Part shown: positions 406 through 43,759 of the stretch, piece by piece
Layout: each line of letters starts with the position of its first letter
How positions within the stretch are numbered: the first letter of the stretch is position 1
Assembly: GCA_050115495.1 (NCBI GenBank)
Contig: JASFQK010000008.1
Coordinates: 99,686 to 163,685, forward strand
Source: Phycisphaerae bacterium
GTDB taxonomy: Bacteria; Planctomycetota; Phycisphaerae; UBA1845; Fen-1342
Direction of reading: 5' to 3'
Length of the DNA: 64,000 nt
Position numbers and translations under genes: made by a program
The notes under the pieces: model-generated
The model's database searches: none
The model's input: only the letters and a program-made list of their open reading frames with translations
Told to the model about the DNA's origin: nothing

Positions 406-435
406 TTCGGCTCTCCGCAGATCGGCTTCACCCGG

Positions 436-3865: not shown

Positions 3866-3906
3866 GCCGGACGCACAGTCCGCTGCATCGGTCTGAGTAA
3901 CTCGAC

Positions 3907-3934: not shown

Positions 3935-4087
3935 TGTCTCATTTGCTGCACGTGGGGGGAAGTCGAAATTACGTCGGATCAAACGCGTCGCTCGCTCGGC
4001 GGTGGTGTTGATCACGCCGCGTTGTGCCTTGTGGAGATGGAGGAACGGAGGTAAGAAGACAGACCGCGTCGGATATGGAGTGCGGCG

Positions 4088-26900: not shown

Positions 26901-29900
26901 AGCGATACGGACGAACCCGGGCAGCGTCTGTCGTTGTTAGCACGTTGTCTGGGATGCAACGTGCGTATGCTTCCGTGCTCGCGGCCGGGAGCACGCCGGT
27001 CAAGCGGAATATCCCCGCCCCCGGCTGGGGTGCGGGCATGTCCGTTTCGCCGTTCTCGGCCGTTAACCTCCGCAACGGCAACGTGTTAACGGCGATTCCC
27101 CTCGTGTCTTGGGATCCCGCGGGGCCGCCGGTCGGCTTCACGCTGTACCACAACAGCCTCGCCGCGCCGTACGACACGGACTCCGCCGCCTGGGGGTTCG
27201 ACCTGGGCGACGGCTGGAGCGTGAGCTACGGCGGCCACGTCGAGGGCAGCAATGGCGATACGTGCGTCACCGTGGTCCATGCAGATGGGCGGCGCGACGT
27301 GTACACGTGGGTGGACGGGGAATACGTACCGCCGGCGGGCGTGCATGATCTGCTCACCTGGGACGGCGGGGCGTCCGAGTGGACGCTCACCAGTCCGGAC
27401 CAGACGCAGGCGGTGTTCAACGACGATGGGTTCCTGGTTGAGGTTCTGGACAGTAGCGGGAACGCGTGTACGGTCGAACGTGACGGCGGCTACCTCACGT
27501 ACGTAAACAGCGCTGCACACGGCCTGTCGGGCGCAGGCGACAACCGCCTCGAGTTGAGATACTACGACAACCGCCTGTACCAGATCGAGGACCCCATCGA
27601 CCGCATCTGGGAGTTCGAGTACGACGGCTCGGGCCGGCTGTGGAAGATCCACTATCCATCCGACGGGTACGTTGCGGCGTCGTGCGTCGAGATTCTTTAC
27701 GAGGCGGGGGCGTCGAACCGCATCCAGCACATCCGTTCGCGGGAATACAGCGTCGCCGCGAGCCCGTCCCCCTACGCCTGGACGTGGAGCTACACGTACA
27801 CGGACGGCTGCCTCACGCTGGTTGAAGATCCCGACCACGACATCGGCGAGGTGGACCCCGTACGCTACGAGCAGGAGTTCGCCTACGAGGCCACGCCCGG
27901 CGGCGACGATCTGTGGGAGACGACGTACACCGATCGGCGAGGCTACGACTGGCTCGTGCGTTTCGACACGGCGGGCGACGCGGTGGAGTACGAGGACCCG
28001 CTGGAGAGCGTGACGGTTCTGGCCTACGACGCGGACCATAATATGGTCGAGTACACGGATCCGACGGACCCGGCCGACCCGCTATCGCATACCTGGAGAG
28101 CAACGTACGGCCCCGTGGGCAACGTCGAGACGGTCACCAGCCCGATCGCCGGGCAGACCTGGACGTACACCTGGGAGCAGCCGGAGCCGTCGACCCGGCC
28201 CAACCTGTACCGCCTCACGCAGGTCTCCGACCCGGTCAGCGGCTGGGTGAGCTACGAATACGCCTGCGACGACCCGGACGATCCGACGCTCGTAACGAGC
28301 GTGACCGAGATGGCCGACGGCCAGGGCAACCCGGCCGCGGTCACGACGATCCAGTACTACGGCAATGACCCTCAGGGCGACCCGTACCCGAACGCCGCGG
28401 GGCAGGTCGCCGTCGTGATCGACGCCAACGAGGTGCATCACGTCTTTGAGTACGATGACTACGGCTACGCGGCCGACTGGTCGGAGGGGCTGTTGGACGA
28501 TGCCCGGATCTGGCCTCCCGTGCTGATCAATCCCGCGTTCGTCTGCGGAGCGGGAAGCAACGCCACCGGCTGGCCGACCACACGCGTCGTTCTCGATAAC
28601 GGATGCGAAGGTAACGCCTTCCATGATGCAAACGGCTCACTTCGCGTGTGCTTATGGACGTGCCCGACGCGCTCTGGCGAGAACGAGATGTCACGCATTC
28701 TCGGCGTGCGACCGGGCGGTCAGCCATCCATGGATGTGCCCGTCAACTGCTCCATCGGCACCGCCGAGTATGATATAGTTGGGCGACTAGAGAATGTCGA
28801 TACCTCTTTCTGCGGGACTGGCGCTGGTTGTCTCCCGGAGCCTCACAGCATCGACCCAGCCTACGACGATCTTGGCCGACAGCTCAGCGTGGCGGTTAGC
28901 ACCTACCTGCCGGACGACAGTACTCTGGAGCGGGTATTCGAGGTCCTCGAGTACGATGCGGATGGCAACCCGCTGTCGGTAGAGGGCCCGGACGGACAGA
29001 CGATCGTGTACACGTTTGGTGTCCAGCCGGGATACGATGAACTGGGCCGGCCCAGCACGGTGACCCGCGGCGGGATGAGCGCCACGTACATCTACGACGA
29101 TGCCGGCCGCCTCGAGCGGATCGAGTACGGCAATGACACGAAGGTCGTCCGGCACTACGATGCGGCGGACCGGCTGGATTGGATCGAGCATCGCGACGAT
29201 CTGGACGCCGTGCTGCTGCGCGTCGATTACGTGTGGAACCTGGACAACACGCTGTACAGCCGAACGGAGACGGACAACGTCGCCAGCGAGACGGCGGTGG
29301 TGACGTTCACCTACGACAACCGCAAGCGGCTGATCGCCGAGGAGCGGGTGGTCAACAGCACGACCACCGTGTACGACCTGACTTACAGCTACGACCAGCT
29401 CGGCAACCGGCTGGAGAAGGTCGATTACGCGCCGGACCCCGACCAGCGGACGACCTACTTCTACGACAGCGATCCGGCGAACCGCGATCCGGCGTACCCG
29501 ACGAACAACAACCGGCTCCTCTGGTACGTCGAGGCAGAGGCTGACGGGTTGGGTGGCTGGACGACGCTGCGGACGGTGCAGTACACTTATTACGAGATGT
29601 CCGGTCACACCGCGAACATCACGGTGAAGGATGAAGGGAACGCCTATTACCGCAACCTGGCGCTGTACTACACGTCCGCGGGGCAGCTCTGGCGTGTGTT
29701 ATGGGACCAGTGGCAGATCGAAGACGACGAAGTCACGGGGTACCAGAAGCTGGCCGGACGGGAGTTCTACTACGACGGCCCGTCGCGGTATCTCATGCGT
29801 GAACTGGACGTCAGCGCGAACGATCCGAACAACTGGGCGCCGACCGGCGATTGGTTGTGGACGGATCAGACGGGTATGCTGCCGTGGGGTGACTTCACGA

Positions 29901-31099
29901 CGGACGGCAGCTACAACGTGGTGGAGTCCGAGCGCTATCTGCCGGGTGCTGGCGTTCACGCCCAGCAAACGCTCGACGGCGAGAACGACCCGATCCGCTA
30001 CCTGCATGGCGACCTGATCGACTCAACGGTGCTGACGACGGATGAGTCCGCCGACGCGGCGGGCTCGCTGGCGTACACGGCGTTCGGTGAGCCGGTGGGC
30101 AGCGCAGCAGCGTTGGGCACACGTTACCAATACGCTGGCGGTTACGGCTACGAATCGGGCCTGCTGGCGCTGCCGGGCGCCCCGGGCACGCAACCGATCA
30201 CACTCCTGCATGTCGGCTGGCGGTGGTACGACGCCGGAAGCGGGCGGTTCGTGATGCGAGACCCGATCGGCCTTCTCGGCGGTGCGAACGTGTACCTATA
30301 TGCTGACGCGGCGCCCACAGCCTCTATCGACCCCGATGGGCTAGAGTGGAAGAAGGTCTTCAGAAAGGGCAAGTGGGTATGGGTCTTCATGAAGAACGGG
30401 CGATTCGCCAAGCCGCCCCTCATCGGCAGGATTGCAAAAGGCGCCTTGAAGAGGTTTCCTGTATATTGGGGCGGGAAGCAGGGAGCCAAGGGCATATACT
30501 GGCTAATCGGTGAGCAATACCCTGGCGACCCAGAAGACATCCTTGCGGAGACGGCGTATTGGACGTGTGTGCTTGTAGTGCGCAAGGTCGATAACGTGAT
30601 CTCCAGCCCGGCGTGCAAGGGCTTGTTGAAGAAGATAGGCGACCGGTTGGGTCGTTTGGGCGGGCCGGCTCCCTGCAGGATAAGTTGCTTCGTGGAGGGT
30701 ACGGTTGTTCATACACCAGATGGACCCGTGCGGATAGAACAACTGGACGTGGGGTATTGCGTCCTGTCAGGAGCCGAGGGCGCGGCAGAGGAGACGGTGG
30801 AGGTGACGCACGCCCTCACCGGCAGCGCTCGGCGACTCATCAGAATTGACTTTGGCGATGACATCGTTACGTGTACGGCGGAGCACCCATTTCTTCTGGC
30901 GAGTGGCTCGTGGAAGCGCGCTTGCGAGCTGACGCAGGGTGATTCCCTGGCGACCGGTCTTGGCGTGCCGGTGAGCATTGAGCGGATCGAAGAGGTGCGG
31001 TTGGAGAGCGATGTTCGGGTCTTTAACCTCTCGGTGAGCGGAACTAGGACCTTTCAGGTCGGGAAGCACCGCGTAATCGTCCACAACAAGAGCATGTAG
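26897..31099 (+). CDS. Rhs/YD-repeat protein (Rhs2) with cationic tip and C-terminal HINT domain
   Basis: FSAVNLRNGNV N-terminal motif shared with Rhs1; YD repeats; YLHGDLIDST..GWRWYDAGSGRFVMRDP; PTASIDPDGL; HINT from CFVEGTVVHTPDG via TAEHPF and VFNLSV to VHN-KSM. Confidence 0.92.
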   Translation: MKRYGRTRAASVVVSTLSGMQRAYASVLAAGSTPVKRNIPAPGWGAGMSVSPFSAVNLRNGNVLTAIPLVSWDPAGPPVGFTLYHNSLAAPYDTDSAAWGFDLGDGWSVSYGGHVEGSNGDTCVTVVHADGRRDVYTWVDGEYVPPAGVHDLLTWDGGASEWTLTSPDQTQAVFNDDGFLVEVLDSSGNACTVERDGGYLTYVNSAAHGLSGAGDNRLELRYYDNRLYQIEDPIDRIWEFEYDGSGRLWKIHYPSDGYVAASCVEILYEAGASNRIQHIRSREYSVAASPSPYAWTWSYTYTDGCLTLVEDPDHDIGEVDPVRYEQEFAYEATPGGDDLWETTYTDRRGYDWLVRFDTAGDAVEYEDPLESVTVLAYDADHNMVEYTDPTDPADPLSHTWRATYGPVGNVETVTSPIAGQTWTYTWEQPEPSTRPNLYRLTQVSDPVSGWVSYEYACDDPDDPTLVTSVTEMADGQGNPAAVTTIQYYGNDPQGDPYPNAAGQVAVVIDANEVHHVFEYDDYGYAADWSEGLLDDARIWPPVLINPAFVCGAGSNATGWPTTRVVLDNGCEGNAFHDANGSLRVCLWTCPTRSGENEMSRILGVRPGGQPSMDVPVNCSIGTAEYDIVGRLENVDTSFCGTGAGCLPEPHSIDPAYDDLGRQLSVAVSTYLPDDSTLERVFEVLEYDADGNPLSVEGPDGQTIVYTFGVQPGYDELGRPSTVTRGGMSATYIYDDAGRLERIEYGNDTKVVRHYDAADRLDWIEHRDDLDAVLLRVDYVWNLDNTLYSRTETDNVASETAVVTFTYDNRKRLIAEERVVNSTTTVYDLTYSYDQLGNRLEKVDYAPDPDQRTTYFYDSDPANRDPAYPTNNNRLLWYVEAEADGLGGWTTLRTVQYTYYEMSGHTANITVKDEGNAYYRNLALYYTSAGQLWRVLWDQWQIEDDEVTGYQKLAGREFYYDGPSRYLMRELDVSANDPNNWAPTGDWLWTDQTGMLPWGDFTTDGSYNVVESERYLPGAGVHAQQTLDGENDPIRYLHGDLIDSTVLTTDESADAAGSLAYTAFGEPVGSAAALGTRYQYAGGYGYESGLLALPGAPGTQPITLLHVGWRWYDAGSGRFVMRDPIGLLGGANVYLYADAAPTASIDPDGLEWKKVFRKGKWVWVFMKNGRFAKPPLIGRIAKGALKRFPVYWGGKQGAKGIYWLIGEQYPGDPEDILAETAYWTCVLVVRKVDNVISSPACKGLLKKIGDRLGRLGGPAPCRISCFVEGTVVHTPDGPVRIEQLDVGYCVLSGAEGAAEETVEVTHALTGSARRLIRIDFGDDIVTCTAEHPFLLASGSWKRACELTQGDSLATGLGVPVSIERIEEVRLESDVRVFNLSVSGTRTFQVGKHRVIVHNKSM

Positions 31100-31163
31100 A
31101 GGTCATGGGCTTCATCTTCCAGCCAGGCCAGGAGCTGGGTGGAGAGCGCCGACAGGGTATGAC

Positions 31164-31532
31164 ATGAGCATGCGTTGCCCTATGTGTGGCTCGGACAAAG
31201 TGGGTAGGGCGTCCAAAGTGACTTACAGGGAGCGATTGCTGATGTTCCGGGCGGCACGCCGGTGCGAGCATTGTGGTTGCGTCTTTGAGCCGCCGACGAG
31301 GATCGTGCTTGTTCTGGGAGTCAGCATTGCGATTGCCCTGGCGGTGGTGCTGGCCGGCTACGAGGCCGTGCGCGATATAGTCGGCGGTTCGTTGACGCTC
31401 TCGACGCTGGTCGCCGTGGGCGCCGCAGGCGGCGGTGTAGCCTGGCTGGGTGCCGCAGGTCACTACTGGAGGAGGGGCAGGTCAACCCGTTCTCGGTCGC
31501 CTGAAGCGGGAGTGGACAACAAACGCGAATGA
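31164..31532 (+). CDS. Zinc-ribbon + 2-TM protein, putative immunity for Rhs2
   Basis: CPMCGS...CEHCG followed by two hydrophobic helices; directly downstream of Rhs2. Confidence 0.65.
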   Translation: MSMRCPMCGSDKVGRASKVTYRERLLMFRAARRCEHCGCVFEPPTRIVLVLGVSIAIALAVVLAGYEAVRDIVGGSLTLSTLVAVGAAGGGVAWLGAAGHYWRRGRSTRSRSPEAGVDNKRE

Positions 31533-31647
31533 AACGTCCTCCAAGCACGAGCAGCAAGCGTGCGCACACGACGTCGTGAAACAGGCGTGTGGCGTGTGTG
31601 CCTCGTGCGGAGCCGGCTTCTCGCGGGACCGACCCGGGAATTGGGTC

Positions 31648-32898
31648 AGCAAGATCGACTATGTCGCCGATCGCCGGACGTGCTACGTGTACGATACGAA
31701 CTGGAACGCGACCACGGAGACGTGGGACGCGGGCCTGTGCTTCACGCCGGCGGACCCGGAGTATGACACGCGGAACAACCGCCTGCTCGAATACCGCGAG
31801 TACCCCGGCGACGGGGAAGGCGGCTGGCTGGCGGCGGATCGATCGGTGCGGTACACGTACTACAAGATCGGCCACGTGTCGAACATCACGGTAAAGGACT
31901 ACGGCGAGGGCGCCGCATACGACTGGTACAATGACTTGGCGCTGTACTACACGTCGGACGGCAAACTCTGGCGGGTATTATGGGACCGCTGGAAGGTCGT
32001 GGACGAGTCCGTGACCAACTACGAGAAGCTGGCGGCTCGCGAGTTCTACTACGACGGCCCGTCGCGGTATCTCACCCGCGAGGTCGATCCGGACACGTGG
32101 GCGCCGGTCGCCGCCGGTCAGCTCTGGACGGATCAGACGGGATTGTTGCCGTGGGGTGACTTCACGACGGACGGCAGCTACAACGTGGTGGAATCTGAGC
32201 GGTATCTGGCGGGTGCTGGTGTCCATGCACAGCAGACACTCGGCGGGCTGGACCCGATCCGTTACCTGCACGGCGATCTGATCGACTCGACGATGCTGAC
32301 GACGGACGGAGACGGGACGTACGCGACTCGTCTGTCGTACACCGCGTTCGGCGAGCCGATCGGCGACCCGGCGGCACTGGGCACGCGGTACCAATACGCC
32401 GGCGGCTACGGCTACGAATCGGGTCTGTTGACGCTGCCCGGCGCCACCGGGACGAAGCCGATCACGCTCCAGCACGTCGGCTGGCGGTGGTATGATCCTG
32501 GCAGTGGCCGGTTCGTGCAGCGCGATCCCGCGGGAATCACCGCGGGGTTGAACGTCTACGCTTACTGCGGAAGCGATCCGGCAACGGGCGTGGATCCGCT
32601 GGGGTTGCACGACGGCGGGCCCTCACACTGGGGCCGGACGCCGGAAGGGGAGCTGGCCCCCCGTCCGTATTGGCCCAAGCCTCAACCGAGCCGCTTGACA
32701 CCGGAGAGGCCGATTTGGAGACCGGGGAATGCGCAATCGGTGCCGGAAGGCGAAGCTGAAGTCGCAGCCGTGAGCATGGCGGTGGGGGGGCTGAGTTGGT
32801 TGGGGGGACCAATCACCGGGGTGCCAACGTGCATCATCGTCGGAGTGTGGAACGTGGTGCACCATGCCCTGAATGTCCAGGGTGGCCTGTATGACTGA
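31648..32898 (+). pseudogene. Orphan Rhs tip cassette 2 (Rhs2-type core fragment + new tip)
   Basis: From KIDY.. onward it aligns with the Rhs2 C-terminal third (NNRLL, LALYYTS, WTDQTG..PWGDFTTDGSYNVVESERYL); PATGVDPLGL, then a Pro-rich and hydrophobic tip. No convincing start. Confidence 0.85.
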
Positions 32899-32925
32899 CG
32901 TGAGAGCCGCACGGGTGATTCGCGA

Positions 32926-33471
32926 TTGCGACAGGCCCGCGAGATCCGGAACAGGGTCTTCTTGTCCGTGGCCGGTCAAGAGGCCCCGGCTCTCGGTAGG
33001 AGGCTCATATCCCGAGCCGAGGTGTGGACTTTAGACTTGGGTAATCCTCTCTACGACCCACTCATTCTCATCGGCGTACACGGGAGCCAGCAGATTCCGG
33101 CTCCCGTGCGCCGTGAGCTGTGCGCCGTCAGACTTATCACGGCTGTTTTGTTGTTTGGTGCGATCTTCGGGTCGGTGGGCGCGTTCGTCGTCAGCAGACT
33201 CACCAGCGTCTGGGTTATCAGCCCGTGGATCGTCTGGCTGTGGATGATTGTATTCCCCGCTTGGCTGTTCACTGTCCCGCCTTTCGTCGCACGCAAGTTC
33301 GCGAAGCGTTTGCGTGAGGCGCGGTACCGCGTCTGCATGACGTGTGGCCACTGCTTGCTCGGGCTCCCACAGCAGCACGTGTGTCCGGAGCGCGGGAGCG
33401 CGTACGAATACGAACGGTTGACACACGACTGGAGGGCTTGGCTCAAGACAGTGAACCTCGATCAGGAATGA
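32926..33471 (+). CDS. 2-TM + C-terminal zinc-ribbon protein, putative immunity
   Basis: Follows orphan tip 2; TM pair, then CMTCGHCLLGL....CPERG. Start uncertain. Confidence 0.65.
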   Translation: MRQAREIRNRVFLSVAGQEAPALGRRLISRAEVWTLDLGNPLYDPLILIGVHGSQQIPAPVRRELCAVRLITAVLLFGAIFGSVGAFVVSRLTSVWVISPWIVWLWMIVFPAWLFTVPPFVARKFAKRLREARYRVCMTCGHCLLGLPQQHVCPERGSAYEYERLTHDWRAWLKTVNLDQE

Positions 33472-33490
33472 CGCGCCGTCTGGTGACCTA

Positions 33491-33566
33491 GAGGAATACT
33501 TCGACAACGGCTTGCATCGCTATCTGGCTCGCGACGTTGATCCGGACACGTGGGCGCCGGTCGCCA
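33491..33566 (+). repeat. Rhs core relic A
   Basis: Translates EEYFDNGLHRYLARDVDPDTWAPVA; 33539..33565 is identical over 27 bp to 32086..32112. Confidence 0.85.
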
Positions 33567-33628
33567 GCGTCCTGTATCCCCGCTTGGCGCCGATCGGGAA
33601 GGCGTAGGCAGGACGAATCGCGCCTCCG

Positions 33629-34114
33629 TCAGGCGGGATAGCCGCGCCGGCCGCGCCGGTGGGCGGTGGGTTCGTCCACGTGGTCGAGCCAGCCGCAGCG
33701 GACGTTCGTCCGCGTGTCGAACCGGCCGACGTACGGCTTGATGTCCAGCAGCGGCGTGCCGTCGAGGATGTCCACGTCCTCCAGGTGCAACGTGCAGCCT
33801 TCCCGGCGGACGAGGCGGACGACGCTCAGGCCGAGCGCGTTCGGCCGGCAGGGGGCCCGCGTCGCGAACACGCCGTGCGGGACGTCTTCGAGGAACGGCG
33901 TGACCGTCAGCCGGGCGGGGCCGACGCGGTCGAACCAGTAGATGAGCCAGATGTGCGAGAAGCCGTCGACGTCGGCGAGCCCCGCCTCGTACGCCGGCTC
34001 GATCTCGGCGGTGCCGGGGATCCCCGCCGCGAAGGTGGGTTGAATGGGCGTCCGTTCAGCGGCCGTGTGCGGCGTGTGGATGACGCCGATCGGTTGCAGG
34101 TTGATGTCACTCAT
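33629..34114 (-). CDS. tsaA: TrmO/TsaA (YaeB) family SAM-binding protein
   Basis: LQPIGVIHTP, GFSHIWLIYWF, GVFATRAPCRPNALGLS, DILDGTPLLDIKPY. Confidence 0.92.
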   Translation of the reverse strand: MSDINLQPIGVIHTPHTAAERTPIQPTFAAGIPGTAEIEPAYEAGLADVDGFSHIWLIYWFDRVGPARLTVTPFLEDVPHGVFATRAPCRPNALGLSVVRLVRREGCTLHLEDVDILDGTPLLDIKPYVGRFDTRTNVRCGWLDHVDEPTAHRRGRRGYPA

Positions 34115-34761
34115 GCGTTCGTTGCTCCGGCGGGCGCCTGTCGGTGCGCCTCCACCGTTACGTACAGCAGCCCGCCGCGGACGTCAAACCGCTCGAACGC
34201 GGACCGCCCGAGCAACGCCGCCACCTCGTCACGTGTGAACCCCGAGCGGAGGATGCCCTCGATCAGGGCCAGCAGCCGCGACCGCCGGACGACGCGCACG
34301 AGCGCTACGCCGCCAGGACGCAACACCCGGGCGCACTCGTCGAGCATCCGCACCGGATCGTCGACCATGTGCAGCGTGTCCTGGCTGAAGATGGCGTCGA
34401 ACGAGGCGTCGCCGAACGGCAGGGCCAGCGCGCTCGCCTCCTGAAACTGCACGCGGCTCTCCACCCCGCACTCGGCGGCCTTCCGGCGGGAGATGTCGAG
34501 CAGTGTCGGGCACAGATCGACGCCGACCAGTTCGGCGGCAGGCAGCCGATCCGCCAGTGCCAGCAGCGTATCGCCCGATCCGGAACCCACGTCCAGCACA
34601 CGGGTAGGCGCACAACCTGCGCGGTTCAGAAACTCGGCAAACTGCTCCCCCGCCCGCCGCGCCGCCGCCGCGTGCCGGCGGGCGTAGTCCGCGGACAACT
34701 CCGCGTCCTGGAAGATCCTGCCGAAACGCGTCTCGTTGATCGGCACACGTTGCACGGGCAT
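34111..34761 (-). CDS. Class I SAM-dependent methyltransferase
   Basis: VLDVGSGSG, VGVDL, LPFGDASFD, RVLRPGG; GGGAGG RBS; ATGA overlap with trmO. Confidence 0.9.
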   Translation of the reverse strand: MPVQRVPINETRFGRIFQDAELSADYARRHAAAARRAGEQFAEFLNRAGCAPTRVLDVGSGSGDTLLALADRLPAAELVGVDLCPTLLDISRRKAAECGVESRVQFQEASALALPFGDASFDAIFSQDTLHMVDDPVRMLDECARVLRPGGVALVRVVRRSRLLALIEGILRSGFTRDEVAALLGRSAFERFDVRGGLLYVTVEAHRQAPAGATNA

Positions 34762-34843
34762 CCTCCCCGCCGCATCAACTCGGACGCGCGGCGCGAGCGC
34801 AGAACCGCCGCCAGCGCACGATTCACACGCTCCAGCGCAGACT

Positions 34844-35911
34844 CTACGGCATTTCGCCCGTGAACGCTTGCTGCAACAGCGCGAAATCCGCCAGGTCCAC
34901 GTCGCCGTCGCCGGTGGTATCGGCACAGTCGCAGCCGGACGCCGGATCTTGCTCCGGACCGGCCAAACAGGCGGCCATCGCGGCGAAGTCGTCGATATCC
35001 ACGTCCGCGTCACCGTCGCAGTCGCCGGCCAGTTCATGCGGATACACGAAATGCGTGAACGGCACCGCCGGGAAGTCGGTCACCGCGTCGCGCGTGTGCT
35101 CGGTGAGGGCGATCTCCAGCCACGTCTCGTTGGGCAGCGTGCCGGCGACCTGGCTGAGCGTCAGCGTCAACCCGTTCGGCGAGACCGTGTACGTGAAGTA
35201 GTCGGTGTAGTAATCGGCGCTGTGCGTCGCTTCATCGGTGATCGTCACTGGTGGGCCGTCCACCACGGCGATCGGCCGGTGAAACGTGAAGCTGATGACC
35301 GCGTCCGTCCGGCTCGGCAGCACGCCGCGGTAGGGCGGGTCGGTCGCTTCGACCGTGGGCGTCGGTACGTTGAACACCAGCGAGAACGGCGGCGTGGCGT
35401 CATACAGCCCGAAGTCGTCCACCAGCCGGTACGTGATGTAGAACGGATAGTCCGGCGCCGGGCTGCCCGGCACGTACGCGCAGTACTTCATGTGCACGTG
35501 GTGCTCGGGCCAGTTGCTCAGGTTGTACTGCTGCCCAATCGCGTCGAGCCACGTGCCGTCGTTCATCTGCACCCGAAGATTGGGCGAAAGATCGAGGATC
35601 TCGAACCAGATCTGGTAGTCGACGTTGGGCTCGCCGACAAGCTGAATCTCCGGTGGAAAGCCGTACGCGGGGTCCGTCGTATCCGCGAAGCCCGGCTCGC
35701 CCACCGACCAGCGCTGATAGATGTTGCTCCACGCCAGCGGGTAGAAGCCCTCGATTGGGTCCCCGTGCCGATAGACACGCGACTTCTCAATCTGAAGCTG
35801 CCCATCCTGCTGATACAGGAAGAAGTGGTCCAGCGGGCATTCCGCCTGCGCCGGCGGCGACAGCCACAGCGCGACGGCCAACGCCACCACGCTCGTTACT
35901 CTCAAGATCAT
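34844..35911 (-). CDS. Secreted protein: CPLxH/HxHM domain + Ig-like domain + C-terminal dockerin-like domain
   Basis: Signal peptide ending AQA-ECPLDH; WPEHHVHM; Ig-like PTVEATDP..ISFTFHRPI; GDCDGDADVDIDDF..ADTTGDGDVDLADFALLQ. Confidence 0.75.
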   Translation of the reverse strand: MILRVTSVVALAVALWLSPPAQAECPLDHFFLYQQDGQLQIEKSRVYRHGDPIEGFYPLAWSNIYQRWSVGEPGFADTTDPAYGFPPEIQLVGEPNVDYQIWFEILDLSPNLRVQMNDGTWLDAIGQQYNLSNWPEHHVHMKYCAYVPGSPAPDYPFYITYRLVDDFGLYDATPPFSLVFNVPTPTVEATDPPYRGVLPSRTDAVISFTFHRPIAVVDGPPVTITDEATHSADYYTDYFTYTVSPNGLTLTLSQVAGTLPNETWLEIALTEHTRDAVTDFPAVPFTHFVYPHELAGDCDGDADVDIDDFAAMAACLAGPEQDPASGCDCADTTGDGDVDLADFALLQQAFTGEMP

Positions 35912-35950
35912 GTGTATGCTCCTCGCGCGCGAGCGCGTTGCGTGCTCAGG

Positions 35951-36775
35951 TTACGGGGTCGGCGGTAGCAGCTCCGGCGGCCAGCCGGGAGCGTGCTCCG
36001 GCCACCACATGTTCACCAGCGGGAAGTTCCACGTCTCCTGCCAGCGATGCGTCTTCGCGTGGCTGTCGATGAACAGGTAGTTCGACTTGCCCACGTGGCG
36101 GTCCCAGGCGACCGATTGCTTGGGGTCCTCCTGCGCTTCCCACAGGTCCGCGTGGAAGTGGTCCGCGTAATCGTACGAGTCGCCGGCGCGGATCTCCGCC
36201 AGGAAGATCACCGACGCCGGGTTCTGAATCTGGTTTATGCGCTCCAGCGCCAGGATGCTCTTCAGCGGCCCGACGCAGGCGTTCACCGCGTAGCTGGACC
36301 AGCGGTACTGCTGCCACTGATCGCGCGGCGGCGGATCGGACCAGTTCAGAAACGGCTTGGTCGTCTCGTCGTTTCGGCAACGCCCGATCAGCGGCTGCTG
36401 CGAGTACTCCTGGAGCACGTTCAACCAGTAGTATTTCTCCGGATGCTCGATGTCCGGCTCAGCCAGCGGGCACGAGGACGTCGGTACGTGCTCGCCGTTT
36501 TCGAGCGCATACGACAGCAGCGCAAATCCCATTTGCCGCATGTTGCTCAGGCAGACGGCCTGTTTGCCCTGCTGTCGGGCGTTGCCCAGGGCGGGCAACA
36601 GAATCGAGATCAGCAGGGCGATGATGGCCACGACGACCAGCAGCTCGACCAGCGTGAAACCGCGCCGGGCGGCGCGGGAGCCGGACTGGCTCCCGCACCG
36701 CACGGCCGTGACGGGCTTCTTTCTCCGCCGGGAGCGAATGTCGGCAGAGTTGCGTGACACCGTCAGATACCTCAT
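35951..36775 (-). CDS. Prepilin-type N-terminal methylation / H-X9-DG-type (DUF1559-like) protein
   Basis: RRGFTLVELLVVVAIIALLISILLPAL..AR....C.SN.RQ; C-terminal RHVGKSNYLFIDSH. Confidence 0.9.
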   Translation of the reverse strand: MRYLTVSRNSADIRSRRRKKPVTAVRCGSQSGSRAARRGFTLVELLVVVAIIALLISILLPALGNARQQGKQAVCLSNMRQMGFALLSYALENGEHVPTSSCPLAEPDIEHPEKYYWLNVLQEYSQQPLIGRCRNDETTKPFLNWSDPPPRDQWQQYRWSSYAVNACVGPLKSILALERINQIQNPASVIFLAEIRAGDSYDYADHFHADLWEAQEDPKQSVAWDRHVGKSNYLFIDSHAKTHRWQETWNFPLVNMWWPEHAPGWPPELLPPTP

Positions 36776-36796
36776 CTCAGAAGTCTGCGATACCGA

Positions 36797-37639
36797 TTAA
36801 CGTCGCCGCGAGCCCACGAGCAACCCCGCCACCAGCACGAGACCCAGCGTACCGGGCTCGGGGACGGCGAAGCGGAACGTGAACGGGTCGGACGCCGTGT
36901 ACATGCCGCCGTCATCGAACGCCGTCAGCGTCGCGGAGAACACGTCCTCCGGCTGCGGATTATCCAGCCAGAAGAAGAACCCCATGTGGGAGTGAATGCC
37001 CCACGCGCCGTTGTCGGCGTCCCACGCCTTCTCACCATAGTCGGCGAACATGTACGTGTCGCCGTCGGCCGCCAGCACCACCGTGTCGTCCGGCCGGATC
37101 ATCAGGAAGTCCGTCGGATCGGCCAGCGAGGTGCTTTCCCGGCGAAGGCCGATGTCCCAGGCGGGCTCGTTCGACTCGTCGCCGCCGGCGAGGTTCCACA
37201 CGCCCTGCGGACCGTTGGCGCTGTGCCAGCCGTCGAGATGCTGCATGCCGTTCGGATCGCCGTAGCCGTCGGGGCCGTACATGAAGCGGCAGACGTAGAG
37301 CGTCTTGTTCGGCTCGTCAGGCTTGGTGATGGGGTCGCCGCCGGCGTCAGTCTCCTGAACGAGGCGCAAGAACGGCGCCTCATCCGGATCGCCCCACTCG
37401 GGCCAGCCGGGCGTCGGGGCGACGGGGTGAATCGGTGGGATGGAGAAGAGCCAGAGTTGGTTGTTGTCGTCTGGGTCGGGGTCGGTCGCCAGATCCGGGT
37501 TGCCGGGCTCGCTCCAGTCGGGTCGCCACGTCGGGTTGATGCCGATGTGCGTATGGCCCAGGGGGCAATCGGCCGATGCCGGCATCGACAACATCAGAGC
37601 AGACAGAATCAATGCAGCAGAAACTGCCGTTGTTTTCAT
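36797..37639 (-). CDS. PEP-CTERM protein with CPLxH/HxHM motifs
   Basis: Signal peptide ending ASA-DCPLGHTH; WGIHSHMGF; VPEPGTLGLVLVAGLLVGSRRR; AAGGA RBS. Confidence 0.88.
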   Translation of the reverse strand: MKTTAVSAALILSALMLSMPASADCPLGHTHIGINPTWRPDWSEPGNPDLATDPDPDDNNQLWLFSIPPIHPVAPTPGWPEWGDPDEAPFLRLVQETDAGGDPITKPDEPNKTLYVCRFMYGPDGYGDPNGMQHLDGWHSANGPQGVWNLAGGDESNEPAWDIGLRRESTSLADPTDFLMIRPDDTVVLAADGDTYMFADYGEKAWDADNGAWGIHSHMGFFFWLDNPQPEDVFSATLTAFDDGGMYTASDPFTFRFAVPEPGTLGLVLVAGLLVGSRRR

Positions 37640-37776
37640 GATTTGTATCCTTCTGCAAGGCAATAAGTATACGGACACCGCTGCCGGCGCACGCCTCATG
37701 GCGCGCAGCGCAACAGTTGCGGTCCGCGTCATGCGTTGAAACTACAAGACCAGTTCGGTCGTGGATCGTGTTTGGA

Positions 37777-38145
37777 CTAGCACGCGGCGAGAAGCGGTGG
37801 GCCGCGCGGCAGGACCGGCGTGGGCCGGCTCGTACGCGGGCACTCGACAGATGGGATCGTGGAACCATGCAGGCACGGAGCAAACCCGACAACCGCGATC
37901 GTCGGTATCTCCGGCACGTACTTGGACGTGGTCAGGATCTGCTGGCAGAGGGAGCAGCTATCGGTGTGGTGGTGCGACCCGGCGTGGGCCAGGTGCAGGG
38001 CGTGCAGGGTGCCGGTCGCCGGCCCGAACAGCAGAACGGGGATCGCCAGCCGGAGGCCGAGACCGCCGGAGCGCACCGAAAGCCGCCGGGCCACGCCGCA
38101 GGAAGCGGCCGGCTGGACCTCGCGGGGGTCGGTGGTGTGACTCAC
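37777..38145 (-). CDS. DUF2946-like leader protein (His-rich, CxxC, C-terminal RGPP)
   Basis: Hydrophobic segment, LHALHLAHAGSHHHTDSCSLCQ, Pro-rich linker, PRGPP 5 residues before the stop. Confidence 0.75.
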   Translation of the reverse strand: MSHTTDPREVQPAASCGVARRLSVRSGGLGLRLAIPVLLFGPATGTLHALHLAHAGSHHHTDSCSLCQQILTTSKYVPEIPTIAVVGFAPCLHGSTIPSVECPRTSRPTPVLPRGPPLLAAC

Positions 38146-38195
38146 GGTGCTTCGCCCGCCGATACGACCAGAGGATTACCCAGTGTTACGCTAGC

Positions 38196-38223
38196 ATTTT
38201 AGCACACGTGCCGGCGAAAGCAA
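38196..38223 (-). promoter_or_regulatory. Probable sigma70 promoter of the leader operon
   Basis: Minus strand TTGCTT-N16-TAAAAT with extended -10 TG, about 50 nt upstream of the leader ORF. Confidence 0.5.
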
Positions 38224-38437
38224 GTTTTGGCTCACGTGGCGGGCTTCGCCGACGGGAGTACGGATGGCGACGCCGGCCGTCGCGTTCCGCCCGCGTCAGC
38301 GGTTTCGGCGAAGACTCCTGGTGGGCGAAAGGGGGGACGCGCCGTCGGCGCGCGGTATGATGTCCGTATCGTCCGGGCTCTGTACCGGACGAGCCCGCGC
38401 CGGCTGGCCAGCGCGGGGGCAGGTGGAGGGTCCCATC

Positions 38438-38929
38438 GTGTCGGGGACAGGTGAGAACCTTGCTGAGCTACCGGCGCTGGTTACGGTGAGCTGGCTCTGG
38501 CGGAAGCCGGCCAACTCGCGGCAGCGGCGCGAGATTGTTATCGACGCCCGCGCGTTCGCGGAACTGTCGCGTGGTACGTCGGTGGAACGCCGAGGCGTGA
38601 GCTTCGCGCAGTTCGTGCGCTCGCTGGAGGAGGACGCCGTGTTGGCTCGCGGGCGGGAGCGGCTGACGCGGATGCACTTCGTCAGCGCCGACTTCCGCGG
38701 TACGTTCGTGTTTCGCGTCGACGCGGGCGGGCAGGCGTGTCGTTGCGATGTGTGGCGCGAGCCGCGTGCACCGGCTTGGCGCAGAAACTCGCGCCACAGC
38801 TTCGATCAGGCGCGGATGCTCGCCGACTGGCGTGGCCTCCGGCGGCGCCGCCGACTGGCGGACCTGCACGCTGCGGCGGTGCTGCTGCGTTATCGGCTGT
38901 GCGGGTGGCATTCGCTTCGGCGGCCGTAA
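38438..38929 (+). CDS. Hypothetical protein
   Basis: GGAGG RBS + GTG; co-oriented 10 nt upstream of the AlkD-like gene. Confidence 0.55.
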   Translation: MSGTGENLAELPALVTVSWLWRKPANSRQRREIVIDARAFAELSRGTSVERRGVSFAQFVRSLEEDAVLARGRERLTRMHFVSADFRGTFVFRVDAGGQACRCDVWREPRAPAWRRNSRHSFDQARMLADWRGLRRRRRLADLHAAAVLLRYRLCGWHSLRRP

Positions 38930-38939
38930 GGAGCAACTC

Positions 38940-39662
38940 GTGACGCAACGTTCCGACTCCGCCGGCGATGCGTACGCCTGGGATTGCGCCGCGGACGCCG
39001 CCACCGTCGCCGCCGCCATCGCCCGCCGAATTGAGCACCAGCAGGACCGCTCCGGGCCGGTGGTGCACGCCCTGCGTCGCGGTTTCTCGAAGCAGCTCCG
39101 CGATCGCGACGCACGCGACGTGATCCGCATCGCCCTGACGGTCAACGAGCACGATGACCACACCTTCCGCTTCATGGCGGCGGCCCTGGTCTTCCATCAC
39201 CCGGGTGCTCTGGAGCGGCTGTCGCTGAGGACGATCAGGCAGCTTGGCCAGGGGATGGACGGCTGGGGCGACGTGGACGTGTTCGTCGGCTACATCGCCG
39301 GCCCTGCGTGGCGTCTCGGGCGGCTTCGCGACGCCGACATCGAACGCTGGACCCGATCGAAAGACCGCTGGTGGCGGCGGGCGGCTCTGGTGTCCACGGT
39401 GGCGTTGAACCGCAAGTCGATCGGCGGGACGGGCGACGTGCCGCGTACGCTCGCCGTCTGTCGCCGGCTGGCGGACGATGGCGACGACATGGTGATCAAG
39501 GCGCTCTCCTGGGCCCTGCGTGAGTTGATCCCGCACGACGCGGCGGCCGTCCGGCGGTTCCTCGCCCACCACGACGCCGTCCTGGCTCGCCGCGTGGTCC
39601 GCGAGGTGACGTGCAAACTGACGACGGGGCGGAAGACGCCTGTACGTGACGGGGGGCGCTGA
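38940..39662 (+). CDS. DNA alkylation repair protein (AlkD-like HEAT repeat)
   Basis: W.DVD, WTRSKDRWWRRAALV, DDMVIKALSWALREL, KLTTGRK; AAGGAG RBS. Confidence 0.88.
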   Translation: MTQRSDSAGDAYAWDCAADAATVAAAIARRIEHQQDRSGPVVHALRRGFSKQLRDRDARDVIRIALTVNEHDDHTFRFMAAALVFHHPGALERLSLRTIRQLGQGMDGWGDVDVFVGYIAGPAWRLGRLRDADIERWTRSKDRWWRRAALVSTVALNRKSIGGTGDVPRTLAVCRRLADDGDDMVIKALSWALRELIPHDAAAVRRFLAHHDAVLARRVVREVTCKLTTGRKTPVRDGGR

Positions 39663-39753
39663 CGGTATACTGCACAAGGAGGGTGGCGGCTGGACGCCGG
39701 GGTGCGGTGGGCAAGAACTGGGCAAGCGCGTGGTTGCGCACAGGTGTTGCGAA

Positions 39754-40149
39754 ATGGCGGGAATTGTGCGGAGTCTGTCGCCCACAGCGCGGGCCGTGTA
39801 CTGCTTCGCACTGCTCCTGCTCCTGCACGTCGGGCATATCACGCTCGTGGCGACGTTTGCTGAGCGGCAGAAGCTGACGCCGGAGACGGTCGTTCCGACG
39901 GCGATACTGACCAGCTTGCTGCTGGGTGCAGGCGTCTGGGGCCTGCTACGGCTGAGGCGGCGACGTGCGCTGCTGGCTATCGTGGTGGCGTCGTTCCTGC
40001 TGGTCGGTGTGATCGCGACGTTGCCCATACTGGCGGCCCTGTCGGGTGGGGGCCGGTGGATCGTCGTGATCGTGTTGGATGCGGTGTACGTGGTCTGGGC
40101 AGCCATCACGCTGATCACGCTCCTGTCGGTGCGTGAGGTGGCGACATGA
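39754..40149 (+). CDS. Small 4-TM membrane protein
   Basis: Four hydrophobic helices; ATGA overlap with the next gene. Confidence 0.65.
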   Translation: MAGIVRSLSPTARAVYCFALLLLLHVGHITLVATFAERQKLTPETVVPTAILTSLLLGAGVWGLLRLRRRRALLAIVVASFLLVGVIATLPILAALSGGGRWIVVIVLDAVYVVWAAITLITLLSVREVAT

Positions 40150-40859
40150 CGAGTTGGCATATCCGATCGGCAGGACTGGATCCCCGGCAAGTTCGCGAGG
40201 GTTTCATCGACGACTGCGGTCGCATGAGGCGAGATCGTGCGAGCAGGGTGCATGCGTTCGCGCGGATCGTGCTTCCCTTGGCGATTTGCTGTGCGATCGG
40301 AGTCGCGTTGCCGGAAGCACTGAACTTGCCGGCGTGGGGCTGCTGGATCGTCTGGGGCGGCTGCATCATGGTGGGCGGAGCACTCGGTGGTTTGTGGGCC
40401 GACCGATACCGGCGGCGCGTATTGCCGGCGACGTTGCAGCGAGAAGAGCGATGCACGCGCCTGGAGCACAGCGCGGGTTTGCCTGACCTGTGGGGAGTCG
40501 ACGACCCCCACGTGCGCAGGTCCATCCGGCGGGCGTGTCTGCTGAGGACATGTTCGATAGGGTACCTGGCCTTGTCGGCCGGGATTGCCGGCTCGGTCGC
40601 CCTGCTGGCGGCGCTTCTCGTGGACTTCCTCATGTGGCATGGCTGGCGCGAGTATCTCGCGTTCTTGGTTACCGTGGGCCCCGCCGTCGCGTTGTTGTCG
40701 ATCTGGCATGCGCGACGGGTCAGCAAGGTGTGCCCCGCCATCCTGGCAGTGATGGGGCGCTGTACGAACTGCGGCTACCAACTCGACCTCCAGATGAACG
40801 GGAGGTGTCCAGAATGTGGGCAGGAAAGGTGCCGAGCCGAGCATGAACATACGCCTTGA
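40146..40859 (+). CDS. Membrane protein with C-terminal zinc ribbon
   Basis: 4 TM + CTNCGYQLDLQMNGRCPECG. Confidence 0.75.
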   Translation: MTSWHIRSAGLDPRQVREGFIDDCGRMRRDRASRVHAFARIVLPLAICCAIGVALPEALNLPAWGCWIVWGGCIMVGGALGGLWADRYRRRVLPATLQREERCTRLEHSAGLPDLWGVDDPHVRRSIRRACLLRTCSIGYLALSAGIAGSVALLAALLVDFLMWHGWREYLAFLVTVGPAVALLSIWHARRVSKVCPAILAVMGRCTNCGYQLDLQMNGRCPECGQERCRAEHEHTP

Positions 40860-40936
40860 TCGGGAGCCGCGGCGGGTTCGAGCGCCAGTATGCATCGCAC
40901 AACGCCTTGCTGGTTTGTCTTCGTTAGACTGCCGGA

Positions 40937-41491
40937 GTGACCGTATGGGATGCTCTTCCGCGTAAGGTGAGTGGTGACGTGAGCGAGTGGACTCCTTCGA
41001 TATATCGGGTCTGGCGCGGTCTTCGGTGGGTCGGTGCCGTTGGGATGACGTTATCGGCCTACGTTCTGCTGTATAAGGCTGGTGTCCTCAGATTGCGGCT
41101 GTTCGCCGGAGTGGACGGCTTCGATCTTGCAGCCCCGGAGGCGTGGCTGGTTCTCGTGTATCTGTTCGGCGCCGGTCTGTTCCTCAATTGGGTTTCGTAC
41201 GGGTGGGTGCGCGTCAGCGACGATGGGATCACCTGCTACTATCCGGGGCGGTCCCGCACAATCCGCTGGTGCGATGTGAGGGCGCGGCGCGTGTATCCAC
41301 GAAACGGGGATCTTGTGCTTCGGTCCAGAGATGTGCGCATGCATCTGGATTGGTGGTTTCGCGGTTTGCCTTCGCTGAAGCGTGACGTGGAGGAGCGTCT
41401 TGCGGCAGCCCGCCCGGAGCTGATCGAACGCAGCACGAGGCGAAGAGCGTGGCACGCGCCATGGGGCGTGGACGAACCCAGGCTGGATTGA
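40937..41491 (+). CDS. 2-TM + bacterial PH-like domain protein
   Basis: TM pair, then VRVSDDGIT...RTIRWCDV. Confidence 0.7.
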   Translation: MTVWDALPRKVSGDVSEWTPSIYRVWRGLRWVGAVGMTLSAYVLLYKAGVLRLRLFAGVDGFDLAAPEAWLVLVYLFGAGLFLNWVSYGWVRVSDDGITCYYPGRSRTIRWCDVRARRVYPRNGDLVLRSRDVRMHLDWWFRGLPSLKRDVEERLAAARPELIERSTRRRAWHAPWGVDEPRLD

Positions 41492-41650
41492 AACGCCGAT
41501 CGGCGACCTCGGTGCCTTTCCGGCGTTCCCGACAGCCCGCAGGCCGACTTTCCTCTTTCGGCGGGCTTCAGTAGGATAATCTGTACCGTGCACGCCGGGT
41601 GGACAGGGAACCGGCGCGTCCGGCGAGGGTGGTCGTCAGAGGTGGGCCAC

Positions 41651-42208
41651 ATGCGCGAAGCAGATTGGATACGTCAGTACCAGGGGCTGATCGCCCTGTG
41701 CAGGTGTCACGTTGCGACGCTGGCGGGCCTCGCGCTTCTGTTCGTCAGCCCGCTCGTGCTCCTGGACGAGAGCATGGACCGCGATTTGCGGTATGTCGTG
41801 TGTGTGTACGGCTTGGCAATGGGCTGTGCGTTCATCGTCATGGAGATCATGGCGTGGGTGTACGCGGCGTCGGTAGGGCAGGCGCTTGCCCTGGGCGGTG
41901 GGCCGATCGGGCCGGTCGTGGGAGAGGCAAAAGTGAAGAAGGGCTATGAGAGGTTTGTCTGGTTCGCGTCGCACCGGTGGCTTTACACGTTGTGCATGAC
42001 GGCAGGTGGCGCCCTTGGGATCGTGGGTGTCGCGACGATGTACGCCCTGCGCAGCCTGGGTGTCGGTGTGACGGCATCCATAGCCGCAGCGCTGGCGGTG
42101 CTGTTCATCGCGCTGCTGTTCGTCCTGGTCGCGTGCCTGCAGCGCTGCGCGTCGGACATCGTGGAGCGGCTGGACGACCTGGCTGCTCGGTTGGAGCAGC
42201 AGCCGTAG
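41651..42208 (+). CDS. Small 4-TM membrane protein
   Basis: Hydrophobic helices; GAGGT RBS. Confidence 0.7.
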   Translation: MREADWIRQYQGLIALCRCHVATLAGLALLFVSPLVLLDESMDRDLRYVVCVYGLAMGCAFIVMEIMAWVYAASVGQALALGGGPIGPVVGEAKVKKGYERFVWFASHRWLYTLCMTAGGALGIVGVATMYALRSLGVGVTASIAAALAVLFIALLFVLVACLQRCASDIVERLDDLAARLEQQP

Positions 42209-42325
42209 CGCGGGTTACGCCCACGCTCAGTGGAGTATGCGACATGGTCAGCCGCTGCAATCTCGCACGTGAAGAACGGCAACCTCTGATCGCGCGCTGC
42301 GCGCCATGTGTTGAGGAGGATGCCA

Positions 42326-42667
42326 ATGCCGAGCTTCCTGGCTTGGTCGCTGGCTGTCGCGTTGTCGCTGATCTTCCTTGCGAGTGCCGTGACCAATCTG
42401 ATCGTCTTCTACCACATCCGTTTCCGGCGAGAGTACCATTCGTTTCTCGGCATCGTCGGCGGAATCGCCGGCATGCTCGCCATCCTCATTGTGCCGCTGC
42501 CCGGGGTACGCCCATATTGGTGTGTGCCGCTCTTCGCGGACATCGGCACCACGCCGCTTCTGATTGTGACGTTGATCTATTACATCTGTAGGGCGGTGGA
42601 ATCGCGGCGGGAGGAGCAGGGCCCCGAAAATCCCGAATCCGGCCCACACACCGGCGAATCCCCATGA
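42326..42667 (+). CDS. Small 3-TM membrane protein
   Basis: GAGGAGG RBS; hydrophobic helices. Confidence 0.7.
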   Translation: MPSFLAWSLAVALSLIFLASAVTNLIVFYHIRFRREYHSFLGIVGGIAGMLAILIVPLPGVRPYWCVPLFADIGTTPLLIVTLIYYICRAVESRREEQGPENPESGPHTGESP

Positions 42668-42784
42668 ATACCTGGACACGCGCGAATCGACGTTCGTCAG
42701 GCTGCGTGGGCAGTGATACAGTTGTGTATCGCCTCTGCATCGTTTCGGTGGCGTGCCTGAGAGGTTGGTTTCCACGGTGAGGCA

Positions 42785-43126
42785 ATGGAACGCTACGAGT
42801 TCAACCCCAAGAAGTGCTACATAACGAGTGCGTGGGTGGAGCGCGCCGTGGCCGAAAGCGCTGCGCAGGAAATCGCCGCGCTCGATGGGCTGATCCGCTT
42901 CGAAGAGCTGGACTCAGAGGACAAAATGGTCCGACGCAGATGGCTAGCGTGGTTGCCGTCGGGCGGATTGGGTGTGTGCCTCGGTTGGAACGAGGCCAGA
43001 AAGCAGTGGTTCGCCAGCGTCTGGGCCGATCCCCCCAACCCTGAGATGATCGCTGCGGCCGACGGACTAGCAGACCGTCTGGCGGCGGAGGGCAGCGAAC
43101 GGCTCAGAGGCCGGACACGAGAGTAA
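42785..43126 (+). CDS. Small soluble hypothetical protein
   Basis: 113-aa ORF with GAGG RBS, globular composition. Confidence 0.65.
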   Translation: MERYEFNPKKCYITSAWVERAVAESAAQEIAALDGLIRFEELDSEDKMVRRRWLAWLPSGGLGVCLGWNEARKQWFASVWADPPNPEMIAAADGLADRLAAEGSERLRGRTRE

Positions 43127-43226
43127 CGTGCCCCGGCCGCCCGCCGATTGACGCAGGCGGACTTCGCCAAGGGTACGAAGATGGTGTGTTACACCTTCGG
43201 CCCGCCACGTAGGAAGAGGTTGCGAG

Positions 43227-43589: not shown

Positions 43590-43759
43590 GTTCGCGGTAA
43601 TGAGGGTTGGACGGGTGGTCGGGAGTTTGAGGACACTTACGAATCGTCGCTCTGTGCGTGGCCGTGACGCCGGCAGGCTTGCGCGTGAGCGCGGCGTTCG
43701 GCGAGCGCACCGCGACGTGTCCCGGACTCGGCGCGCCGTCCATGGAACAGGAGTCCTGC

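Follow-up and report, generated by a model that had tools for sequence, protein, structure and literature searches.

The window analysed here, a stretch of 64,000 nucleotides from a Phycisphaerae bacterium (GenBank assembly GCA_050115495.1, contig JASFQK010000008.1, positions 99,686 to 163,685 of the forward strand), carries a short leader open reading frame (ORF) followed by genes for a PEP-CTERM surface protein, a prepilin-type protein and a dockerin-tailed secreted protein. These four genes are the conserved core of a module that recurs in related genomes; as a unit it is well supported, and it is probably zinc-related. In the reading that we consider somewhat probable, the leader would be a ribosome-arrest sensor that keeps the three surface genes, all of which encode histidine motifs, switched on during shortage of a metal, probably zinc. 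This reading starts from what is seen directly, namely the anatomy of the locus, the fixed spacing between the CxxC and RxPP motifs of the leader, its place in front of the other module genes and a genomic context of the zinc type.

The leader contains a hydrophobic stretch at about residues 27–47, preceded in the alignment by a basic stretch, then a histidine cluster (H48/51/54/58/59/60) and the motif C64SLC67. The original prediction had described the 122-residue ORF in these terms and had placed RGPP at its very end; the motif is in fact near-terminal, R114GPP117 being followed by five further residues. The codons of CxxC and RGPP lie at 37945–37956 and 37795–37806, and 46 residues separate the two motifs, within a range of 45 ± 2. 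Among 19 aligned leaders, H51, C64, R114, P116 and P117 are invariant. Comparison with six close relatives shows that codon position 2 is the least changed in all six and position 3 the most changed in five. Six-frame ORFs with CxxC and an R[AG]PP tail number 10 of 56,015 in this GC-rich genome, a frequency at which a chance origin is possible; the conservation of position, spacing and frame across genomes shows that the leader of the window is not a chance ORF.

To follow the leader across genomes, 59 loci (cited below by L numbers) were compared, 19 chosen by a search with the PEP-CTERM protein (PEP protein) alone and 40 chosen for having the leader; the 58 rows used for spacing include the window and omit L057, in which no downstream start was found. 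The named closest relatives of the locus are Phycisphaerae and other Planctomycetota assemblies. A similar leader, with hydrophobic segment, histidine cluster, CxxC and RAPP, RGPP or RPPP, precedes the PEP gene in 18 of the 19 PEP-selected loci, with CxxF in place of CxxC in L012. The sole leaderless one, L017, has a duplicated, broken PEP gene (L017:5125–5800). A class-wide PEP search found matches in 27 of 401 genomes, and of the 11 places without a match to the leader profile, 10 still have such a leader, the eleventh being a truncated copy. The expectation that the leader is conserved upstream of homologous clusters is thus confirmed in loci selected by the PEP gene. Overall, a leader is present in 58 of the 59 loci, where it always comes first or follows a Fur gene immediately. 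The distance from the first Cys to the Arg is 48–52 in 57 of 58 rows and exactly 50 in 40 (44–48 intervening residues). The motif is RAPP in 38 leaders, RGPP in 14, RPPP in five and RSPP in one, and RxPP is kept 1–8 residues before the stop in 57 of 58. The leader profile matches in 54 of 401 genomes of the class, 16 of 401 of a phylum sample, and 443 representative proteins. Decayed copies were also observed, namely a frameshifted prepilin (L007:6875–7672) and a truncated module in L121.

These features recall CruR of Bordetella pertussis, in which the distance from CxxC to Arg is 49, is kept within 1–2 residues over >2000 proteins, and cannot be lengthened by five residues without impairing regulation (PMC9426467). 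RAPP/RGPP arrest is refractory to EF-P, and translation of CruR in vitro halts while its two prolines occupy the P and A sites (PMC12992588). The window leader resembles CruR in being operon-first, in a putative N-terminal export segment, in the long intergenic region behind it and in the presence of Rho, and in both proteins CxxC stands 45–46 residues ahead of RAPP/RGPP. It differs in that CruR senses copper and heads a TonB-dependent copper transporter, whereas the targets here are PEP-CTERM, prepilin and dockerin-tailed proteins in a zinc-type context, and in that it has a histidine cluster before CxxC and falls below Pfam detection. CutF of Rhodobacter capsulatus (PMC9973294; 10.1101/2025.02.05.636593) is an exported leader that, like that of the window, has a Cys motif and a proline-rich end; its Cys motif, however, is CxxxC, and copper induces its stall, leading to a detoxifying oxidase. 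The profile search that had been proposed as a check on the DUF2946 assignment gave no match for the window copy, and the leader matches no other Pfam or NCBIfam model scanned. Only relatives match, mostly below the cut-off: 9 of the 19 aligned leaders weakly (best E 0.003) and 11 of 18 sampled proteins of the leader family, one of them above the cut-off (24.0 bits). A DUF2946 search of the own genome found three unrelated weak places, none at the leader. The assignment therefore stands on features, spacing and upstream conservation and not on a family match of this copy; the leader probably works like a DUF2946 leader, as a divergent branch of that family. A few CruR homologues have been reported in Planctomycetes (PMC9426467), and the CruR and CutF papers both name copper, nickel/cobalt and efflux neighbours (PMC9426467; 10.1101/2025.02.05.636593).

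The genes behind the leader are equally constant. In the PEP-selected loci, wherever the sequence extends far enough downstream, the prepilin follows (17 of 17), as does the dockerin-tailed gene (14 of 14). Of all 59 loci, 52 contain a prepilin cluster and 45 the PEP/dockerin-tailed cluster. Two layouts recur: leader, PEP, prepilin and dockerin-tailed gene, as in the window, or leader, prepilin and two surface proteins. The PEP, dockerin-tailed and main alternative families are homologous (hhalign 98–99.7%), with a common N-terminal histidine and a late H-x-H strand. The PEP protein has conserved histidines at H29/H31, H134/H139 and H216/H218, of which H29, H31, H134, H216 and H218 are invariant. 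It has the features of a PEP-CTERM exosortase substrate (signal peptide, VPEP, membrane segment and basic tail), scoring above the TIGR02595 cut-off of 16 bits and just under that of Pfam PF07589 (19.1 against 20.7), and an exosortase is encoded on another contig (C7). Its model is a β-sandwich (pLDDT 85); a fold search with it gave no match at E 0.001, the best (Z 6.0) being generic β-sandwiches. The dockerin-tailed protein has an N-terminal His-motif domain (D28-H29, H138-x-H140) that aligns with the PEP family at an hhalign probability of 98%. In five loci, choice-of-anchor M cluster proteins (one scanned, 56.7 bits) replace these His-motif domains. Like them, the choice-of-anchor M/TIGR03769 family (NF038134) stands behind leader and prepilin and has H-x-D and H-x-H motifs; unlike them, it aligns with the two domains of the window at only 5–37% in hhalign.

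The prepilin has a prepilin cleavage/methylation motif (PF07963, 31.8 bits; TIGR02532, 30.4 bits). Its earlier description as an H-X9-DG-type protein containing DHFH holds for the N-terminal methylation motif and for DHFH (residues 205–208); the scores for PF07596 DUF1559 (15.3 against 23.3) and TIGR04294 H-X9-DG (16.0 against 19 bits) lie under the cut-offs, and the motif reads H-X9-DS. The protein carries D205-H206-x-H208, H227 and H239. DHxH is found in 50 of 54 leader-linked prepilins (two are truncated and two lack it) and in only one of the 36 prepilin-type ORFs of this genome, that of the window itself. Leaders of a different sub-type, in L065 and L074, precede prepilins without DHxH. 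In the prepilin model (pLDDT 93), only the N-terminal pilin helix matches pilins of the PDB, weakly (E ≥ 0.57), and the fold search found nothing at E 0.001. Exosortase, prepilin peptidase and secretins are encoded elsewhere in the genome, in which one TonB-dependent receptor was found.

Judging from the neighbouring genes, the context probably favours zinc, not copper. A Fur-family gene is present in 22 of the 59 loci and lies upstream of the leader in 21 of these. L004 and L005 have PEP proteins 67–68% identical to that of the window, and the Fur genes that diverge from these two loci group (97/99) with the znuABC-linked Fur of this genome, at 43–46% identity. Here, a fur-family gene heads znuABC on contig C44 (1650–4960, minus strand). 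L002 adjoins genes for ZepA/all3515 (260.9 bits) and ZigA (615 bits), ZepA lying 4 kb upstream of the leader end. This locus (166–4205 and 8808–11013) is an island of the zinc-starvation type, with ZepA, ZigA, a second prepilin and two GPMxH surface proteins. AztB/C-like ABC genes occur in three loci, one of which, L060, has a TGCAAC-N3-GTTGCA box followed by fur, leader, a porin-like gene and the AztC/B-like ABC genes, and a ZIP transporter gene lies behind the module in L058. Outside the class, the gene after the leader (14 hits) encodes ZnuA in three cases, an ArsP-type permease in one, DUF58-like proteins in three (L108, L111 and L112, other Planctomycetota) and unnamed proteins of at least about 450 residues in others. 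The leader family thus heads metal-homeostasis operons, and the window's own targets would have a metal role as well. The statement that the module has no transporter is true of the window locus, although the leader family elsewhere heads ZnuA and AztBC genes, and the metal-sensing context proposed at the outset is backed by metal-uptake neighbours and conserved His motifs, with zinc favoured over the copper of the precedents.

Several further observations concern these neighbours. Leaders head proteins of about 450 residues or more in L059, L060, L067, L100–L102, L105–L107 and L113; six were scanned and gave no informative family, and those of L059, L060 and L067 precede AztC/B-like ABC genes. 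Such proteins are candidate outer-membrane zinc pores. An unannotated membrane protein of about 250 residues lies upstream of fur and leader in eight loci (L055, L059, L062, L063, L067, L068, L084 and L088). Downstream neighbours include ManA in 10 loci and an amidase in five.

The strongest alternative is that the same arrest senses copper, or nickel, cobalt, manganese or iron, with Zur-type control acting separately and the module gathering or buffering that metal. CxxC and its spacing equal those of CruR, and copper is the sole ligand tested to date. A lead in the same direction is the best Atlas feature match of the PEP domain, a 'metallo-mystery four-Cys' cluster (0.86, below the 0.9 bar). 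Yet copper oxidases, chaperones, CopC and P-type ATPases are absent among 85 flanking proteins (E 1e-8) and 25 cluster representatives, while zinc markers recur. Copper was accordingly dropped as the default reading, and we regard this alternative as unlikely.

Upstream of the leader, a promoter can be read by eye, with −35 TTGCTT (38218–38223), a 16-nt spacer and an extended −10 TGnTAAAAT (38196–38204); a consensus promoter scanner did not report it, finding no promoter in 32500–39500, and the −35 matches at three of six positions. The operator-like site behind it matches GTAWTAC-N3-GTAWTAC, a consensus derived from these same loci, at 12 of 14 positions, which the window alone reaches in 0.002 of shuffles. 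Eleven loci, that of the window among them, show a match this good (null mean 0.13, maximum 1). A NikR reading of the GTAACAC half-site was discarded, as its spacing (by eye) misfits the N13/14 consensus. Related loci carry other boxes. TGCAAC-N3-GTTGCA, which is the Zur box predicted for the znuABC-zur operons of Desulfovibrio (PMC545781), is exact upstream in eight loci, L010 and L053 being near-identical, and matches at 11 or more of 12 positions in 11 (null maximum 1 in 30 shuffles); three additional loci all belong to one genus. A 16-bp TGATAA-type palindrome occurs in five loci (null maximum 2). By eye, the boxes overlap the −10 region or follow it closely, which is a repressor-type position. 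A scan of 30000–42000 against Rfam gave three matches, all far below gathering scores, and no riboswitch.

How a stall would act on the next gene appears to differ between loci. A ribosome footprint placed at the motif eases opening of the next Shine-Dalgarno (SD) sequence by at least 1.5 kcal/mol in 26 of 54 loci, against seven and six with shifted footprints; four rows with gaps >260 nt were left out. Duplexes between the covered stretch and the own SD beat GC-binned permutations (0/5000). Kinship inflates both tests. The window shows a different arrangement. It has a predicted long GC hairpin (37669–37724) and a predicted small hairpin (37649–37660) over the SD of the PEP gene, and a long intergenic hairpin plus a local SD hairpin are shared with L001 and L002, with some compensatory changes among the three sequences; the overall fold of the intergenic region is not unusual (z −1.3). 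The footprint test gives no support to SD unmasking at the window locus, which was set aside there. Given the gap of 137 nt and a genome that encodes Rho, Rho-dependent attenuation is the better guess. One RNA run (X1) has exact pieces over the leader (37755–38124), and pieces of read length fall within the PEP gene and the dockerin-tailed gene, although library DNA may account for these, the run having no silent-stretch control.

Combined, these elements suggest the following mechanism. By default, the ribosome would stall at RGPP. While RGPP occupies the peptidyl-transferase centre, the patch of His residues and CxxC that precedes it by 46 residues would lie just outside the exit tunnel, where metal could fold it and release the stall, as proposed for CruR. 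The stall would maintain expression of the genes behind it, in roughly half of the loci by exposing the following gene's ribosome-binding site and at the window locus, more probably, through a block of termination by Rho. Repression of the Zur type would act as a further, transcriptional layer in many relatives. The module would yield a PEP-CTERM protein anchored by exosortase, a dockerin-tailed paralogue of it that is secreted, and a pilin-like protein. All three have a histidine site of their own, and they may gather metal in the manner of ZepA and hand it over to uptake systems whose genes lie elsewhere (in this genome zur-znuABC, contig C44). A bolder version, in which a zinc-sensing leader under Zur runs an extracellular zinc relay and the DHxH pilin-like protein, in a pilus or pseudopilus, draws zinc inward from the His-motif proteins, is speculative and rather doubtful.

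The direction of control could also be that of CutF, with metal inducing the stall and the module made in metal excess to bind the surplus at the surface. CutF sets a precedent for unmasking of the next SD, an effect predicted here for roughly half of the loci though not for the SD of the window locus, and in Caulobacter a DUF2946 gene heads an efflux operon that Zur activates (PMC4176598). The leader family, however, heads high-affinity uptake genes (ZnuA, AztBC), which makes the CruR direction, a stall when metal is scarce, the likelier one, and the boxes, by eye, stand at a repressor position on or just after −10; control in the CutF direction is therefore improbable. A SecM-type monitor, freed by Sec pulling or by oxidation of CxxC with no metal sensed, would fit the export of every core product, and RAPP/RGPP arrest peptides do head sec and DsbA/thioredoxin genes. 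It leaves aside the histidine cluster by CxxC, the CruR-like spacing and the recurrent metal-uptake genes and Fur regulators, and we give it a similarly small probability. That the leader has no regulatory role and is a decayed relic, or else a small metal-binding membrane protein acting independently, as the missing Pfam match and the weak SD at its GTG start might suggest, is highly improbable for an ORF that is always first or behind Fur and keeps near its stop, in 57 of 58 cases, an RxPP motif of a type avoided in proteomes (PMC12992588).

A number of points weigh against a zinc-responsive arrest leader at this locus. Stalling, translation of the leader, metal binding and the direction of control are deduced from sequence, all experimentally tested DUF2946 leaders sense copper, and Pfam DUF2946 (PF11162, cut-off 23.7 bits) does not match the window leader. 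The loci come from related genomes, so that counts and permutation tests overstate independence, and 40 of the 59 were selected by leader presence. Opening of the next SD fails in the window (rank 44 of 58), L001 and L002, and the C-over-G bias near the leader end is mild (C39/G27). The window locus has neither the Desulfovibrio-type Zur box nor an adjacent Fur gene; its 7-3-7 site is a motif other than the Zur box. A genome scan with that motif gave 89 hits above 11 bits, the top 20 mostly intragenic and without a metal regulon; the window's own site scores 10.8 bits, just under this threshold, and the znuABC locus has no site among the top 30 hits. NCBIfam could not call the Fur genes Zur, and the second Fur gene of the genome falls in the same clade as the znuABC-linked one. 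FeoB/MntR genes near L001, L010 and L124, which fit another metal, and SodA behind L092 point away from zinc. Finally, homology to ZepA is weak (hhalign 62–79% against one sequence).

Another close known system is ZepA, a PEP-CTERM exoprotein under Zur repression through which zinc is taken up (PMC10957091). ZepA/All3515 (NF040463), which also occurs in the PVC group, shares the signal peptide, His motifs, PEP-CTERM and Fur/Zur and COG0523 neighbours. In contrast, the PEP protein of the window reaches 11 bits against the NF040463 cut-off of 75 (4 of 38 relatives match weakly), its histidine pattern is HxH...H...HxH and not H-X2-9-H-F/Y-H, and neither an arrest leader nor a prepilin turned up for ZepA in the available part of PMC10957091. 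A ZepA search of the own genome gave no match, but the positive control matched nowhere, so that absence is not concluded. The pairing of leader and prepilin has a statistical forerunner: 'DUF1559 domain-containing protein' is a top-30 class behind RAPP uORFs in the Fig. 4B source data of PMC12992588, with 112 RAPP against 68 AAPP cases (6.5-fold) and CxxC in one example, and the same data hold rows for zinc-regulated TonB-dependent receptors. That class is the same gene pairing, without the link to zinc, DHxH, PEP-CTERM or dockerin and without the PEP gene that often lies between the two here. The text of PMC12992588 makes no mention of DUF1559, zinc, pilins or PEP-CTERM in the part available, and its supplements may list more. 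Searches of the literature turned up neither an account of this module nor one of an arrest leader that senses zinc, although large supplements may hold more. The statement in the original prediction that no description of the architecture was known agrees with this as to the module, whereas the pairing of RAPP leaders with DUF1559 genes is already in published source data.

The coordinates of the features are collected in Table 1. The six genes are co-oriented and closely spaced, as first described, with gaps from leader to TrmO of 137, 21, 39, 82 and −4 nt, and Pfam and NCBIfam agree with the first identification of the PEP-CTERM, dockerin, class I methyltransferase (MTase) and TrmO_N proteins. 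The last two genes, however, do not hold as members of the module. The MTase has no full-length close homologue across the 59 loci, only a short N-terminal remnant in L001; the class I MTases encoded behind the module in L012 and L087 are not related to it. TrmO homologues lie downstream of the leader in three of the 59 loci (L001, L058 and L085). GC content is 0.70 for the MTase gene and 0.71 for the TrmO gene, against 0.65–0.66 in the three surface genes. Both are passengers or loosely tied accessories outside the conserved core. The TrmO protein (TIGR00104, 116.9 against 93.25 bits) consists of the N-terminal domain only; E. coli TrmO has a C-terminal domain, for which 161 residues leave no room.

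Table 1. Features of the leader-headed locus, in window coordinates
Feature	Position	Strand	Remarks
TrmO_N protein gene	33629–34114	minus	TrmO_N 131 bits; 161 aa
Class I S-adenosylmethionine (SAM) MTase gene	34111–34761	minus	Pfam; accessory tail
Dockerin-tailed secreted protein gene	34844–35911	minus	355 aa; Dockerin_1 29.4 bits
Prepilin-type (DUF1559/H-X9-DG-like) gene	35951–36775	minus	274 aa; N_methyl 31.8 bits
PEP-CTERM surface protein gene	36797–37639	minus	280 aa; TIGR02595 18.9 bits
Intergenic region, leader to PEP gene, 137 nt	37640–37776	minus	predicted hairpins
Leader ORF, DUF2946/CruR-like	37777–38145	minus	122 aa; GTG start
Operator-like 7-3-7 site, GTAACAC-TGG-GTAATCC	38173–38189	minus	6 nt past −10 box
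Promoter-like site	38196–38223	minus	read from sequence by eye; function putative

The surroundings of the locus hold genes of other kinds. Divergent from the leader lies an AlkD-like DNA alkylation repair gene (38940–39662, plus strand; Pfam 93.8 bits). Small membrane-protein ORFs stand in series at 32926–33471 and 39646–44095 (plus), some ending in CxxC...CPECG-like ribbons. A large RHS/YD-type repeat ORF (26864–31099, plus), the C-terminus of which presumably resembles a Hint auto-cleavage domain, precedes a small ORF for a membrane protein and an RHS segment without its own gene context, an orphan (31450–32898, plus); the layout of this region (26864–32898) is polymorphic-toxin-like.

To date, metal-sensing arrest leaders have been shown for copper only, and no zinc riboswitch is known according to the CruR paper (PMC9426467). 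A zinc-responsive leader under Zur, if true, would constitute a second, post-transcriptional layer of zinc control. Planctomycetes have dozens of prepilin-like DUF1559-type genes without a known role, 36 prepilin-type ORFs in this genome alone; since the DHxH subgroup is linked with this leader and with zinc genes, the role of one prepilin subgroup becomes directly testable. Both surface domains are without close solved structures. Pilus-coupled metal uptake, if it exists, would offer a route for cells with almost no TonB receptors. The leader may also serve as a marker: throughout the phylum, genes that stand behind it are candidates for a part in zinc uptake.

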